Virus record (IMG/VR): IMGVR_UViG_3300014682_000025
Strand: one strand, 5' to 3'
DNA length: 41,278 nucleotides
From: a virus
Lineage: Duplodnaviria; Heunggongvirae; Uroviricota; Caudoviricetes
In this document: one piece after another, positions 1 through 10,845 of the stretch
How the letters are laid out: each line of letters opens with the position of its first letter
Position numbering within the stretch: the first letter of the stretch is position 1
Notes under the pieces: generated by a model
The model's input: only the letters and a program-made list of their open reading frames with translations
Database searches by the model: none
Told to the model about the DNA's origin: nothing
Program-made: the position numbers and the translations under genes

Positions 1-1284
1 TTACAGACTTCTGGAAGGTTGCACAGCTCTTACAACACGCGGTTGATCTTCCGCAGCGTCTTCCAGCGCACTTAAATCACGGTCTTTCACTTCTGGCATT
101 TTCAGCGCAGAGATTAAACCAATCACTGAATATGCCATGATCATAATGGCGATCGGATACCAGGATTCCGTCATGGTGCAGAAAATACCCGCCAGGATAG
201 GACCAAAACCGGAAGCGATAAGACCACCAATTTCTTTAGAAATGGCCATCCGGGTAAAGCGGTTTTTACAGCCGAACATTTCTGCCATGGTAATGTTTTC
301 CAGAGCAAATAATCCCAGCACCGCACAGTTATGAATCACAATCAGTGCAACCATAATGGTGCTCGGGGCATAGCTTTTATCTACAATGATAGAAAGCATT
401 GGCCATGCCAGCACAATCGCGGAGGTATTCATAATAATATACGGGATCCGGCGACCAATTTTATCGGATAACCAACCAAGGAACGGAATGGTCATAAAGC
501 CGAGAATCGAACTAATCATCAATGCATCTGTTGGAATTGCTTTGTTAAACAATAACGTCTGCACTAAATAGCCTGCAAGGAAAGTCTGAATTAACCCGGA
601 GTTACCCGCCTGACCAAAACGCAGCCCTGTTGCCAGCCAGAAGGATTTGCTCTGGAACATGCTACCAGCAGGTGCAGGTTTTGCTGTGGGTTGGTTGCTG
701 TCATTAACCTTCTCAAAGACCGGGCTTTCTTTCAGATTCATACGTAACCAGATAGCAAAGACCATCACGACAACGCTCGCCAGGAACGGTATACGCCATC
801 CCCACGCCAGCAGTTCCTCTTTACTGAGAATGAAGAACATAAAGGCCCAGATTGCCGTTGCGCTCAAGGTTCCGCAGTTAGTTCCCATAGCTACAAATGA
901 GGAGATAATTCCGCGCTTACCTTTTGGTGCATATTCCGCCAGCATCGTACCGGCACCGGAAATTTCCGCACCTGCACCCAACCCCTGAATAATACGCAGC
1001 GTCACCAGCAAGATGGGGGCAAAAACACCAATCTGTGCATAGGTCGGTAACACACCAATTAAGGTGGTACAGATCCCCATCATGGTGATGGTAATAAAGA
1101 GCACTTTTTTACGCCCTATTCTGTCGCCCATTTTGCCGAAAATAAATGCTCCGACAATACGCGCCACATAACCTGCACCGTAGGTTCCCATTGCCAAAAT
1201 TAACGCCATTGCCGTTGATGATTCAGGAAAAAATATTTCATGAAACACTAACGCTGCGCCGAGCGAATATAACTGGAAATCCAT
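1..1284 (-). CDS. ydfJ: MFS-family transporter, 427 aa, many hydrophobic segments; chromosomal flank of the prophage
   Basis: Full-length ORF in track; polytopic membrane protein with MFS-like GxLaDrxGrkk motif (GKMGDRIGRKK); recognised as YdfJ from memory, no search run. Confidence 0.8.
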   Translation of the reverse strand: MDFQLYSLGAALVFHEIFFPESSTAMALILAMGTYGAGYVARIVGAFIFGKMGDRIGRKKVLFITITMMGICTTLIGVLPTYAQIGVFAPILLVTLRIIQGLGAGAEISGAGTMLAEYAPKGKRGIISSFVAMGTNCGTLSATAIWAFMFFILSKEELLAWGWRIPFLASVVVMVFAIWLRMNLKESPVFEKVNDSNQPTAKPAPAGSMFQSKSFWLATGLRFGQAGNSGLIQTFLAGYLVQTLLFNKAIPTDALMISSILGFMTIPFLGWLSDKIGRRIPYIIMNTSAIVLAWPMLSIIVDKSYAPSTIMVALIVIHNCAVLGLFALENITMAEMFGCKNRFTRMAISKEIGGLIASGFGPILAGIFCTMTESWYPIAIMIMAYSVIGLISALKMPEVKDRDLSALEDAAEDQPRVVRAVQPSRSL

Positions 1285-1887
1285 AATTCACAGGTGTTTT
1301 TTCCCATCCTGTGGTTTCCTTGGCGTTTTCTAGGTTTTTTCAGATAGTTGCATTTTTTAAAAAGCATCCTAAGTTCGATCTCAGTGTCTATCTGGGGCCT
1401 ATTTCTGTCCCATATATGCCCCAAAAAAACTCCCCAACAGATAAGTAGTTTTTTCATGGATTTATGCGTAAAATCAAGAACGGCTGGAAATCATTCAATA
1501 CTCACACTATCGAAAAATTTACCAGCCAACCGCAGCACGTTCTTGCATAAGGCGTGTCTGCGGTTTTTCAACTATTCAGATACATCACTCCCATCACATT
1601 CATTCCTCCGCATCAAAGGCATATAGGCTATATCACCTTGATATTTTTCTTCTTCAGATAAAAACTGTTATCTATGTATACTTTTAAACCCAATCCGTGT
1701 AGAGTCTCTGCATAAGATAGTTTGCAGTTGCCGCTTCAGCTTGCGCCATAAACCGCCTGATTTTTGCTGCCACCTGTTAGCATTCCTGTATACCTGAAAC
1801 GACAATGTTTATCTACGAACTTTAAGAACACCCAAGATAAAAATTGTCAACTATATCATATATAACACATTACTAATTCGAGGCTAT

Positions 1888-2001
1888 ATGAACAGCATAC
1901 TGATAATCACTTCTCTCCTTATCATATTCAGCATTTTTAGTCATGCCCTAATAAAATTAGGGATTGGCATATCCAATAACCCAGACAAAACCGATGTATA
2001 A
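1888..2001 (+). CDS. Candidate small hydrophobic peptide, 37 aa ([37 protein letters not shown])
   Basis: ATG with GAGG 4 nt upstream; one predicted TM-like segment; below 60-aa track cutoff; no homology claim. Confidence 0.2.
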
Positions 2002-2069
2002 GCCAACATATCCTGAATCAGACATACAATATCGCAATGAAAATCAATAATATTTTAAGGAATATCTTC

Positions 2070-2303
2070 ATGAAATCAAAAGACACCCTAAAGTGGTTCC
2101 CTGCGCAGCTTCCTGAAGTAAGAATTATCCTAGGGGATGCTGTAGTGGAAGTAGCAAAACAGGGAAGACCTATCAATACCAGAACATTGCTTGATTACAT
2201 TGAAGGAAACATAAAGAAAAAATCATGGCTGGATAACAAAGAATTATTACAAACAGCGATATCAGTTCTTAAAGACAACCAAAATTTAAATGGTAAAATG
2301 TAA
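2070..2303 (+). CDS. ydfK: YdfK-like small prophage protein (77 aa from MKSKDTLKWF)
   Basis: ORF 2037-2303; internal ATG at 2070 preceded by AAGGAA; sequence recognised as YdfK-family. Confidence 0.75.
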   Translation: MKSKDTLKWFPAQLPEVRIILGDAVVEVAKQGRPINTRTLLDYIEGNIKKKSWLDNKELLQTAISVLKDNQNLNGKM

Positions 2304-2532
2304 TATAATAAACTTACTTTTTTATCATTTTTCCACTTTAACAACATTTTGCTCCACTTTTCCACGACCAAACAACTTGAAATCTGGTTAAAATAACACG
2401 CAACACTATTCTTCTTCCTTGAGTCCGCCCGGAACTCGAAAAACAAACCGAGTTAAAGCCATTTTTCACAAAATCGATTTTGGGTCTCACCAAAATTACG
2501 GGGTTGCATACGCATTCGTTTATTTTCGAACG

Positions 2533-2572
2533 TGTACATACAAATATGTACAAAAATAATCAAAATTATTTT
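2533..2572. promoter_or_regulatory. Two adjacent perfect 20-bp dyads (TGTACATA-CAAA-TATGTACA and AAAATAAT-CAAA-ATTATTTT) about 50 bp upstream of pin
   Basis: Read directly from sequence; function unknown. Confidence 0.3.
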
Positions 2573-2619
2573 CTGAGATGCATTATGATATGAACACCAA
2601 TTTCGTATAGAATCTCACT

Positions 2620-3210
2620 ATGTCTCGAATTTTTGCTTACTGTCGGATATCAACGCTGGATCAGACCACCGAAAATCAACGCCGGGAAATCGAAAGTGCA
2701 GGTTTTAAAATCAAACCTCAGCAAATAATCGAAGAACACATTAGCGGCTCAGCAGCAACCAGTGAGCGTCCTGGTTTTAACCGGTTGCTTGCTCGCCTGA
2801 AATGTGGTGATCAATTGATTGTGACAAAACTGGATCGCCTTGGTTGTAATGCAATGGATATCAGGAAAACAGTGGAACAACTGACCGAAACAGGTATCAG
2901 AGTGCATTGCTTAGCATTGGGGGGCATTGACCTGACCAGTCCAACAGGAAAAATGATGATGCAAGTAATTTCAGCAGTCGCTGAATTTGAACGAGACCTT
3001 TTACTTGAACGCACTCATTCCGGGATAGTAAGAGCCCGCGGCGCAGGGAAACGTTTTGGTCGACCACCTGTGTTAAATGAAGAACAGAAACAGGTGGTAT
3101 TCGAACGAATTAAGTCAGGTGTAAGTATAAGTGCCATTGCCCGGGAATTCAAAACCTCGCGGCAAACCATTTTAAGAGCCAAAGCAAAACTTCAGACACC
3201 TGACATATAA
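2620..3210 (+). CDS. pinQ: Serine recombinase / DNA invertase of the Gin/Hin/Pin family, 196 aa
   Basis: N-terminal resolvase catalytic domain (YCRISTLDQ, Ser11) and C-terminal HTH; sits next to tail fibre genes as in Mu, P1 and e14. Confidence 0.9.
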
Positions 3211-3307
3211 AAAATAATCTCGGTGTGAGATGCTTTACGTCTTCCAAGCCCCCTTCCTTGCCGTAAATGGAAAGATACATCTAATTATAGAATTTATATG
3301 TTTTACC

Positions 3308-3883
3308 CTACGGCAGTGCTGGCCATTCAATATCCTGTGCAGTTGACGTATCAACACGGTTCAGCAATACCCGATACTTTTTCCATGCTTCCAGCAACGA
3401 GATTTCTTCCTCCGTTGCAATTTCCAGATCTGCAGCATCCTGAAGCGGCGCAATATGCTCACTGGCTACCTGCATCAGGTTGTTTTTTGTTTCTTCCGCC
3501 TCCCGGATCCGGAACAGTTTTTCTGCTTCCGTATCCTTCACCCAGGCTGTGCCGTTCCACTTCTGAAACTCCCCTTCCGGGGATAACCAGGTGACATTTT
3601 CCGGTAATGGGCCAAGTTCAGAAATAAATAACGCGTCGCCGGAAGCCACGTCATAGACGGTTTTACCCCGATGATCTTCAACGAGATGCCACGATGCCTC
3701 ATCACTGTTGAAAACAGCCACGAAGCCAGCCGGAATATCTGGCGGTGCAATATAGGAACTGTTTGCTGGCAGACCTGTATGAGGCGGAATATATGCGTCA
3801 CCTTCACCAATAAATTCATTAGTTCCTGCCAGCAGATTATAAATTTTTATGGTCCGTGGTTGTTCACTCATTCTGAATGCCAT
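3308..3883 (-). CDS. tfa: Tail fibre assembly protein Tfa, 191 aa
   Basis: N-terminus [24 protein letters not shown] matches lambda Tfa; start overlaps stf stop (ATGA). Confidence 0.85.
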
Positions 3884-6798
3884 TATGCAAGCCTCACAAT
3901 GTAGTTAAATGCGATGTTTTTGACAGTGTTTTCCGCGTTACCAGCAGCGTTAACGGTGATGGTGTGTCCATGTGAGCCAATCGCAACAGAGTGCGTATGA
4001 GCACCAATACCGACAGTATGTGCGTGAGCACCTGCAGATGCAGCTGTGCCGCTGACACTATGAGTGTGCGCTCCTGCAGCACTTGTATTCACACTGGCCG
4101 CAGACACTACCTTATGTACTGACCCATTTTGTGACCACTGGCTGACTGCTGATGCGCCTGTGACACTATGAGTATGGTTTCCGGCACTTGCGGCTGTACC
4201 GCTCACACTGTGCGTATGCGCCCCGGTGTTATTCGTGGATTTAGTGCCGTAATCAAACGACGATGTGGTTTTCGTCCCCAAATCCGTACTGGATGCACTG
4301 GCGCTGTGGGTGTGCGATTTAATGCCGTCCTGTTCCTGAGATAATACGGCCCGACCACTGGCAGGTTTGCCCTTAATCGTCCAGCCACGCATATCAGGGA
4401 TCACGCCTGACGGATAAGCGGTTGCAAGTTTCGGGTAAGCGGATTTGTCAAAAGTCTGCCCCTGCATCAGGGCATAACCAGACGGAACGGTATCTGATGG
4501 CCACGGGATTGGTGCGCCAGGCGGATAAAACTGCTCTGATGGCGTATAGAGTGAATAAACTGTACCGTCCGTTAACCCTTCCGGCTTATTAGCAGAATAT
4601 GCTGGTGACGTATGAATAGTCACGCTGGCATTACTGGTATAATCCCATTGAATATTTACACCAGTCGCATAATTTCCGATTGCAACGTAAATATCGTAAG
4701 TATCACCAGATGTATTGACCCAGGCAAAATTTGTAAACCCTGTCGATGTGCGCTGCCATAAAGCACCAGTAATCCCCTTCGGATTACCATTACCTGCACG
4801 CAAAACAAGTTCAGATATACCTGCCTGTTGAGGTGACCCCACGTTAAATCCCGCGCCACCAATCAACGTAATTGAAACAACAGAACTCGCCTGTGGCATG
4901 GTTACCGTTGCTAATTTGAACCAACCAGCACCACCGCTGAAGGACATTGTTGTTGAGTTAAGCGTACCAATATCTTTCGGCGTCAGTGTTATATCCGCTG
5001 AAAGCGCCTTACCATTCACCTTACGGGCAGAAGGTACCCGACCATTCGCATTATCATTAGCTGCTTTCACTGCTTTCGGTGTCGCGGCAAGCGTTTCAGA
5101 TGCGCTGTTGGTTGCACTACTGAGCTGGACAATTCCTTTTTGTGCTGTCGTAGCGTCCTGAGCAGTATATTTCCCGTTAGCAAGGTCATAGGCTGCCTTT
5201 ACCGACTTTGGCGTTGCCGCCAGCATTTCAGATGTGCTGTTGGTCGCGCTGCTGAGCTGAACTATCCCTTTCTGTGCTGTCGTTGCATCCTGTGCGGTGT
5301 ATTTCCCGTTAGCCAGCTCATACGCGGCCTTAACGGCTTTTGGCGTTGCCGCCAGTGACTCGGAAGTGCTGTTAGTCGCACTGCTGAGCTGTACTATCCC
5401 CTTTTTCGTCGTGCTCGCATCCTCAAGCGCCACGGCGGATGCAATATCCTCTGCCCGTTTTGCCGCTGTCTCGGCGCGCGTTGCCGCGGATTCCGCCGTA
5501 CTTTTGCTCTGAGCTGCCGCCGTCGCACTGCCAGCTGCCTCTGTCGCCTTCGTGGATGCCGTCGTGGCGCTGCCCTTTGCTGCTGACGCCTGTCTGGTCG
5601 CCTCATCTTTTGAAGCAGACGCAGATGATGCCGATGACGCCGCCGAACTGGCGGACGATGCGGCAGCCGTTTTTGAGGATTCTGCGCTGGTTTCCGACGC
5701 TTTCGCGTTCGTCTCGGATGTCTTCGCTGCGGAAGCAGACCTCGCTGCTGCGCTGGCCTGTTCAGTGGCTTCGCCAGCCTTCGTTGTGGCTGTTGAAGCG
5801 GACGATGCGGCGCTTTCTGCCGATTTTCCGGCAGCGGTGGCACTGGCTGAGGCCTGCCCGGCACTTGTTGACGCGGCACTGGCAGACGACGCAGCCGCTG
5901 TTTTTGAGCCTGCCGCAGCTGAGGCGCTCTGTCCCGCTGCCGTCTCAGAAGACCTGGCGTTCGTCTCGGACGTTTTTGCCGCCTTCGCGGAATTTGCTGC
6001 CGCCGTTGCCGAGGAAGCTGCGCTACTGGCGCTCGAGGATGCGTTCGTTTCTGATGATTTTGCCGCCTCTTTTGAAGCCGACGCATCCCGGGCTGAGGTG
6101 GCAGCTTCTGACGCTTTCGTAGTCGCGGTGGATGCAGAAGTGGCGGCTGATTGTTGTGACGCTGCAGCATTCGTTTCTGACGTTTTCGCGGCAGCGGCAC
6201 TGGTAGCTGCCGCGCTTTTTGAGGACTCTGCAGCGGCAGCACTTTTTTCCGCTTCAGTGGCCTTTGTTGATGCCGTTCCTGCGCTGGAAGACGCTGACTG
6301 AGCCGACGAAGCGGCCTGTCCGGCTGACGTGCTGGCTGCACGTGCTGAATCTGCAGCATCAGTCGCATGGGTTGCCGCCTCACGGGCAGATGTGCCGGCA
6401 TCACTGGCTGACTTCTTCGCGGCTGCCGTGTTCTGTGCCACCACGGACGCGTTACGCGCCACCTCTTCCACCATCTGTTCAAAACGGCGCAGTGCCTCCG
6501 GACGGGCATCATCCTCCGTCATGGCACCGAGAAAATCATTCAGCGTACCGGGTTGAGAATCTTCATACACGGTGATGGTCCCGGCATGTGACGGCGGGAA
6601 TCCTTCCACCAACAGAATAACGCTGTACTGCCCGTACTCAACGTCCATGCTGTAACGCCCGGCTTCATCCGGATTTTCTGAGGCCAGCGTGTTCACCACC
6701 ACCGTGGTGCTGTTACGTTTTGCTTTCAGCTGGATTGTGCAGTTCTGTACCGGTTTTCCTGTGCCGTCTTTCAGTACACCTGAAATCTTTACTGCCAT
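3883..6798 (-). CDS. stf: Side tail fibre protein Stf (about 971 aa from MAVKISG), apparently intact
   Basis: Track ORF 3883-6804 starts at GTG; ATG two codons downstream gives lambda-like [12 protein letters not shown]; Ala/Ser/Thr-rich low-complexity region, [11 protein letters not shown] repeats, C-terminal H-x-H repeats. Confidence 0.85.
5045..5425. repeat. About three tandem copies of a 132-bp (44-aa) repeat within stf
   Basis: Repeated DNA and repeated peptide [41 protein letters not shown]; boundaries approximate. Confidence 0.7.
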
Positions 6799-6809
6799 AT
6801 TCACCCCAC

Positions 6810-6835
6810 AAAAAAGCCCGCCTGAACCGGCGGGC
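6810..6835 (-). terminator. Intrinsic-terminator-like hairpin (GCCCGCC...GGCGGGC plus T6) between lom and stf
   Basis: Read from sequence; the T-tract abuts the stf ribosome-binding region. Confidence 0.45.
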
Positions 6836-6862
6836 TGTCATAACACTGTGTTACCTGGCTAA

Positions 6863-7462
6863 TCAGAATTTATAACCAACCCCCACGAAGAACCCGTCAG
6901 TGCGCCAGTCGCCACTGCCGGAGCCTTCATAAGCGATATCAATGGCCACGGATTCGGTCGGGTTAAACTGCACGCCAGCCCCCCACGCCAGAGACGTGTT
7001 GCTGTGGCGACCGTCATCACTTCCGGTCAGCACATCGTGCGTTTTCCCCTTGTTGTCAGTTACGCGGAGATAATCCCCGGAGAAAGTCGACACACGGCTG
7101 TAAGCCACACCCGCCATCGTATACGCGCTGAACCATTCATTCACGCGTACAGACGGCCCCGCCATCACGCTGAACCAGCGGTTACGAACGGAATCTTCAT
7201 GCCAGCGGGTATCGCTGTAACGGGTCAGCTGGCGATTCTTGTCTCCTGCATAGCTGAATGACGTCACCAGCCCCAGTGTGTCCGTAAACTCATAACGGTA
7301 TTTCACGTTAATCCCGTTCAGATCATCGCTGCCGGGAACGTTCGTCGAGGCATGAAGATACCCCGCGCTCAGCGTGGACTGATGTTCAGACGCCCATGCA
7401 GGCGCACCGGATACGGCCAGACAAATGGCTGCGGACAAAATGGCGGCATAAAGTTTACGCAT
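6863..7462 (-). CDS. lom: Lom-like outer membrane beta-barrel protein (Ail/Lom/OmpX family), 199 aa with signal peptide
   Basis: Signal peptide MRKLYAAILSAAICLAVSGAPAWA, C-terminal GVGYKF; position between J and stf as in lambda. Confidence 0.85.
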   Translation of the reverse strand: MRKLYAAILSAAICLAVSGAPAWASEHQSTLSAGYLHASTNVPGSDDLNGINVKYRYEFTDTLGLVTSFSYAGDKNRQLTRYSDTRWHEDSVRNRWFSVMAGPSVRVNEWFSAYTMAGVAYSRVSTFSGDYLRVTDNKGKTHDVLTGSDDGRHSNTSLAWGAGVQFNPTESVAIDIAYEGSGSGDWRTDGFFVGVGYKF

Positions 7463-7528
7463 AATTACCTCTCGCTTTTCTGCAATAAAAAAGGCGTCAT
7501 TTCTGACGCCCGTTCTGGGTTATAAAAT

Positions 7529-10845
<3,317 letters not shown>

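Follow-up and report, generated by a model that had tools for sequence, protein, structure and literature searches.

A predicted T4 gp37-type, histidine-rich receptor-binding tip in the side tail fibre of a lambdoid prophage

The C-terminal region of the side tail fibre protein (Stf) encoded in the virus record IMGVR_UViG_3300014682_000025 very probably constitutes the receptor-binding end of a lambdoid prophage fibre, a tip belonging to the T4 gp37 tip family, in which three chains would form a needle holding metal ions by six His residues each. Throughout, the window refers to the whole stretch of 41,278 nucleotides that was analysed. This tip is already known biology and not a new feature, its particularities being small details, namely a seven-site register and a clean tip cassette. 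Indeed, the gain in new biology is little, as a gp37-type HxH iron tip in a lambda-type Stf is published and the locus is present in many E. coli genomes.

The stf gene appears in the ORF list as a minus-strand ORF at 3883..6804, and its translation of 973 aa from the GTG at 6804 contains exactly seven H-x-H (HxH) motifs between residues 831 and 947. From the first to the seventh, all on the minus strand, they are SHTHS (His 831/833, 4306-4314), AHTHS (His 863/865, 4210-4218), NHTHS (His 877/879, 4168-4176), AHTHS (His 913/915, 4060-4068), AHAHT (His 927/929, 4018-4026), AHTHS (His 936/938, 3991-3999), and SHGHT (His 945/947, 3964-3972). The segment 3927-4338 corresponds to residues 823-960 and encloses all seven motifs. 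These are precisely the pentapeptides that a preliminary description of this DNA had reported in the Stf tip, and its placement of them in the last 150 residues is borne out as well, motif 1 sitting 143 residues from the C-terminus. Fourteen of the 18 His residues of Stf are located in these motifs. The pattern is far beyond chance, since composition-preserving shuffles of whole Stf gave a mean of 0.32 HxH motifs and never seven (0/20,000), while shuffles of the last 150 residues gave a mean of 1.39 and reached seven once in 20,000 trials. ORFs on the plus strand or in alternative frames under the motifs, such as that at 4168..4344 on the plus strand (58 aa), were rejected as side effects of the coding strand that nothing else supports.

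The true start of stf is probably the ATG at 6798, two codons downstream of the GTG at 6804, which would give a protein of 971 aa. This assignment is drawn from the alignment with lambda orf-401 and from the RefSeq annotation of the corresponding locus of E. coli B7A, where the counterpart of stf is entered, intact, as a tail fibre CDS 2916 nt long. Residue numbers given here are counted from the GTG, and all Stf numbers are lower by 2 with the ATG start. Pfam searches identify a prophage tail-fibre N-terminal domain at residues 3-136 (phage_tail_N, PF08400, E=7.5e-72), three Phage_fiber_2 repeats, a Phage Tail Collar domain at residues 763-810 (Collar, PF07484, E=1.6e-11), and a 14-residue Phage_fiber repeat at residues 858-871 that covers one of the HxH motifs.

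Comparison of the last 300 residues of Stf with all PDB sequences by phmmer returned one strong match, the receptor-binding tip of T4 gp37 (2XGF, E=1.2e-89). The alignment spans 228 residues, Stf 746-973 against gp37 799-1026 (query 73-300, chain 15-242), and contains just two indels of one residue each, one in the collar and the other in the distal tip. Overall, about 67% of the residues are identical, a proportion that rises to about 75% once the distal tip is set aside. Furthermore, the seven HxH motifs of Stf all align with those of T4, at H883/885, 915/917, 929/931, 966/968, 980/982, 989/991, and 998/1000, and their spacing is 32, 14, 36, 14, 9, and 9 residues in Stf versus 32, 14, 37, 14, 9, and 9 in T4. 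The gp37-like tip put forward in the preliminary description thus has a direct and close homologue of solved structure. The likeness extends to the same conserved structural Gly residues, to a homologous chaperone gene located downstream, and to the same C-terminus, the 17 residues closing the Stf collar being nearly identical to the C-terminus of gp37.

The limits of the domains defined in T4 gp37 (PMC6957217) were transferred to Stf through this alignment, all of them on the minus strand. The N-terminal section of the collar (D10), delimited by the 2XGF alignment and Pfam, covers residues 758-829 (4318..4533; T4 gp37 811-881), and the collar is 74% identical to that of T4. It is followed by the descending strand of the needle stem, residues 830-879 (4168..4317; T4 882-931), which carries motifs 1-3 and is 76% identical. 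The distal tip or head subdomain, residues 880-906 (4087..4167; T4 932-959), is hypervariable, and identity in the tip subdomain falls to 14%. The ascending strand, residues 907-956 (3937..4086; T4 960-1009), carries motifs 4-7, and the C-terminal section of the collar, residues 957-973 (3886..3936; T4 1010-1026), aligns without gaps; ascending stem and C-terminal collar together (residues 908-973) are 76% identical to T4. On the other hand, the rest of the protein differs from gp37, being a lambdoid Stf with phage_tail_N and an Ala/Ser-rich shaft instead of the gp37 rod, and the fibre is one of a siphovirus tail.

One point of the preliminary description has to be amended. It had pictured the tip as beta-helical, but homology points to a gp37-type six-stranded antiparallel beta needle inserted in an alpha/beta collar domain, and no beta-helix family is found among the Pfam matches of Stf. 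In gp37, each chain turns back on itself at the head, which gives the needle its six strands (PMC12609058; PMC7291167), and the needle is inserted in the alpha/beta collar domain (PMC6957217; PMC7291167; PMC12609058). By homology, three Stf chains would come together with the aid of the Tfa chaperone encoded downstream. Each would exit the collar, descend along the fibre axis, make a small distal head and return upward, so that jointly they would build a single six-stranded antiparallel beta needle. At each of seven axial levels, one HxH motif per chain would face inward, and the six imidazoles of a level would hold one metal ion octahedrally, Fe(II) in the case of T4. Three of these sites would be provided by the descending strand and four by the ascending strand. 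The buried sites would lock the three chains in register and make the needle stiffer, whereas host recognition would be ensured by the 27-residue hypervariable head. Both an alignment of the chains as they fold and a stiffening of the fibre have been proposed as roles of the buried ions (PMC6116203). The trimeric state, the inward orientation of the His residues, the nature of the metal, and the receptor role of the head are all inferred by homology.

As to the metal, homology argues for iron, with the His side chains predicted to point inward in the trimer. Seven Fe ions bound by di-histidine motifs are aligned along the axis of the T4 gp37 needle, the closest solved homologue, whose needle is about 75% identical to that of Stf (PMC6957217; PMC12609058), and octahedral six-His Fe sites made from HxH motifs of three chains occur in gp37, P2 gpV, phi92, and R-pyocin fibres (PMC6116203). 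The same fold and the same buried six-His sites could be occupied at some or all levels by another physiological metal, for example Zn(II) or Ni(II), which we consider very unlikely. The sequence itself does not discriminate between metals, and the middle residues of the Stf motifs (T, T, T, T, A, T, G) are slightly unlike those of T4 (S, T, S, S, S, T, G). Furthermore, the HxH site of T4 gp12 was crystallised with zinc, and for this reason the metal is not readable from sequence; yet gp12 had been refolded in the presence of zinc, which may therefore be a refolding artefact, and the HxH sites of phage fibres and spikes usually hold iron (PMC6116203).

Given the shared seven-site register, compared with eight sites in lambda, 2XGF is a nearly gap-free template for the Stf tip. 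An AlphaFold2 monomer model of the last 228 residues, built from an alignment of 41 sequences, was poor (mean pLDDT of 51, pTM of 0.20) and its sole feature was a long hairpin with the tip at its centre (model residues 120-176). When this poor monomer model was compared with the PDB by Foldseek, no match reached E<=0.001, the only hits being beta-hairpins of pore-forming toxins. As this fold exists only as an intertwined trimer and multimers are beyond the tool, this model was counted neither for nor against the gp37-type needle.

The presumed chaperone is encoded immediately downstream by tfaQ (3308..3883, minus strand), a tail fibre assembly gene whose start codon overlaps the stf stop. Its product of 191 aa belongs to the Caudo_TAP family (PF02413, E=3.7e-43), is 94.2% identical to lambda Tfa, and shares 26-32% identity with T4-type gp38 assembly proteins across 93-95% of its length, while its C-terminal 65 residues match the structure of Mu Tfa (5YVQ_B, E=2.6e-8). 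In the assembly of gp37, lambda Tfa can stand in for gp38 (PMC9659904).

Conservation among relatives separates the needle from its head. For the C-terminal 228 residues of Stf, the protein collection yields 1952 homologues at E<=1e-5, and the same residues match 633 phage records, which include lambdoid, T4-like (Tequatrovirus), P2-like, and Felixounavirus phages. When the 120 best cluster representatives are aligned together with T4, the 14 motif His residues all prove to be conserved at 98-100%. The seven motifs are present in 114 of the 120 relatives, and the spacings of 32, 14, 14, 9, and 9 residues are invariant among them; only the interval across the tip, between motifs 3 and 4, varies, from 35 to 56. 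Conservation reaches 93% or more in most columns of the N-terminal section of the collar and 98-99% in its C-terminal part (residues 957-973). It is 99% for G869 and 100% for G911, the equivalents of T4 G921, which packs against the core, and of T4 G964, which packs against the Fe ligand H929 (PMC6957217). By contrast, residues 880-910 are hypervariable with indels, most columns being conserved at 7-35% and a few at 45-84%, among which residues 888, 894, and 895 stand at 63-66%. The 120 relatives display 46 distinct tip segments, which fall into at least about 10 unrelated families of 32-53 residues carried on an otherwise invariant scaffold; the tip type of this Stf is found in about 10 of the 120 representatives.

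The variable segment is bounded exactly by HxH motifs 3 and 4, and this invites another reading of the motifs, in which their codons would serve primarily as DNA anchors, or "His boxes", for recombination that swaps receptor-specificity cassettes, metal binding being secondary. A role of this kind was reportedly put forward for the adhesins of T-even phages in the 1990s; our literature search returned no paper containing the term "His box" or "GXHXH". The abrupt limits of the variable segment, the at least about 10 unrelated tip families, and the presence of the same tip module in siphophage prophages, T4-like myophages, and P2-like phages are in line with such swapping, which does not exclude a structural role. 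Yet all 14 His residues are conserved as protein, even in motifs 1, 2, and 5-7, which lie far from the variable segment, and replacement of the T4 ligands H929 and H931 by Ala is lethal, with no plaque formation (PMC6957217). We thus regard recombination as an unlikely primary function of the motifs, and a structural, metal-binding function of the needle is preferred.

The 27-residue head lying between motifs 3 and 4 is presumed, from its position and variability, to be the receptor-contact surface. In T4, the tip subdomain bears the contact patches for LPS and OmpC (PMC6957217), but the T4 head (residues 932-959) is unrelated to that of Stf, in which none of the LPS/OmpC contact residues is recognisably kept. 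As the Stf head (residues 880-906) is also only 20% identical to that of lambda, and is therefore unrelated to both characterised heads, the receptor of Stf is not predictable. As one of the swappable tip cassettes, this head may bind something other than OmpC or LPS glucose as its receptor; it also contains a non-conserved His residue outside the motifs, H897, three copies of which around the axis could make up a further, partial site for a metal or ligand, the eighth, at the distal pole. We offer these two suggestions as speculation and consider them unlikely. For annotation and engineering, a clear line runs between the features to keep (the 14 His residues, the structural Gly residues, and the fixed spacing) and the 27-residue swappable cassette, and an exchange of this head cassette would offer a way to retarget host range.

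Apart from its head, this Stf closely resembles that of Ur-lambda, which is composed of orf-401 and orf-314 and is accompanied by Tfa in the same J-lom-stf-tfa order as here. Its N-terminal half is 67% identical to orf-401 and its C-terminal tip 68.6% identical to orf-314; these identities and that of TfaQ to lambda Tfa identify the gene as an intact Stf of the Ur-lambda type. However, lambda Stf has eight HxH motifs, with an extra rung of 9 residues on the ascending strand paired with a 10-residue SFDYGTK duplication on the descending strand, whereas this Stf keeps the seven-site register of T4. The lambda head is also longer and unrelated to the head found here, and the shaft of this Stf is about 100 residues longer. 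The lambda Stf tip has been published as gp37-like and OmpC-binding (PMC7291167), the HxH motifs of lambda Stf have been noted before (PMC11705849), and the family of T4/lambda receptor-binding proteins has already been described (PMC9659904). Further comparisons can be drawn with the R-type pyocin fibre shaft, P2 gpV, phi92 gp138, and the LTF and STF of Bas63, in which one HxH motif per chain leads to an octahedral six-His axial site. The pyocin fibre and the central spikes differ from Stf by their single site and other fold, and within this group the gp37-type combination of collar, needle, and head is found only in the Bas63 fibres, which carry 6-7 motifs.

The genomic context identifies the locus, by its similarity to annotated genomes, as a lambdoid prophage at the Qin site of E. 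coli with the order J-lom-stf-tfaQ-pinQ. Beyond tfaQ, Pfam recognises a Pin-type serine recombinase, pinQ (2620..3210). An invertible segment that pinQ might serve was considered, and the one candidate, a weak inverted repeat of 20 nt with 80% complementarity and one arm within pinQ, was judged to be due to chance. By megablast, the segment is 99.6% identical to E. coli B7A, in which the gene order is ydfJ (truncated), ynfT, ydfK, pinQ, tfaQ, tail fibre, Lom, gpJ, tail assembly, and tape measure. Since the Qin prophage at the corresponding site of E. coli K-12 is defective, stf could also be the decaying remnant of a defective prophage, its motifs being inherited without current function, and a gap of 10 N inside gpJ (9913-9922) hides the integrity of J in the window. 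This seems to us highly improbable: stf and tfa are full-length and uninterrupted here, the B7A copies are intact CDSs beside complete J, tail assembly, and tape-measure genes, and the structural residues of the tip are strongly conserved. The prophage runs on collinearly past the gap, and 1551 of 5426 complete E. coli genomes contain at least 80% of positions 2500-7500 of the window, a distribution that likewise argues against a decaying remnant.

Comparison of the side tail fibre protein Stf of the window with its counterpart in phage lambda (NC_001416), using positions 2130-3074 of lambda against 3886-4569 of the window, shows eight HxH motifs in the lambda protein and seven in that of the window. 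The ascending strand of the lambda needle carries an additional 9-aa rung with the motif AHQHP, and this rung has its counterpart in the descending strand, where a 10-aa SFDYGTK duplication is found. From this pairing of an extra ascending rung with a descending duplication, the needle seems to lengthen by whole rungs, simultaneously on both strands. Eight HxH motifs are found in only 2 of the 120 relatives. A fifteenth His residue of the C-terminal region, H897 (4114-4116, minus strand), is located outside every HxH motif and is the single His of the hypervariable head; it occurs in only about 9% of relatives in the alignment of the 120 sequences and T4.

The Stf reading frame is listed with a GTG start at 6804. 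The start indicated by orf-401 of lambda, and by the nearly identical locus of E. coli B7A as annotated in RefSeq, is the ATG at 6798 (MAVKISG…), with which Stf has 971 aa. The long Ala/Ser/Thr-rich low-complexity shaft region (about 5400-6500, Stf residues ~130-460) exceeds that of lambda by ~100 aa. Several long ORFs that it produces in alternative frames or on the opposite strand are spurious, namely 5394..6512 (minus strand, 372 aa), 5552..6301 (plus strand, 249 aa) and 5439..6122 (plus strand, 227 aa). Furthermore, a tandem repeat at 5090-5400 (132-bp unit, 2.4 copies, 82% match) is the DNA counterpart of the three 44-aa Phage_fiber_2 repeats of the shaft (…[15 protein letters not shown]…[12 protein letters not shown]…).

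A PinQ-type serine recombinase is encoded next to tfa (2620-3210, plus strand), and no invertible tail-fibre segment was evident near it when inverted repeats were sought within 1200-7000. The sole inverted repeat of this interval is 20 nt long with 80% complementarity (2090-2109 / 3038-3057), and one of its arms falls within pinQ.

At the prophage end, ydfJ, an MFS transporter gene (1-1284, minus strand), lacks its N-terminus at the junction and is likewise annotated as incomplete in B7A; this truncated gene marks the Qin attachment site. Elsewhere, a run of 10 N (9913-9922) interrupts the gene of the central tail fibre gpJ, so that in the window the J frame cannot be followed across this point. 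Both flanks of the run are collinear with B7A, whose coordinates place the missing sequence at ~80-90 bases.
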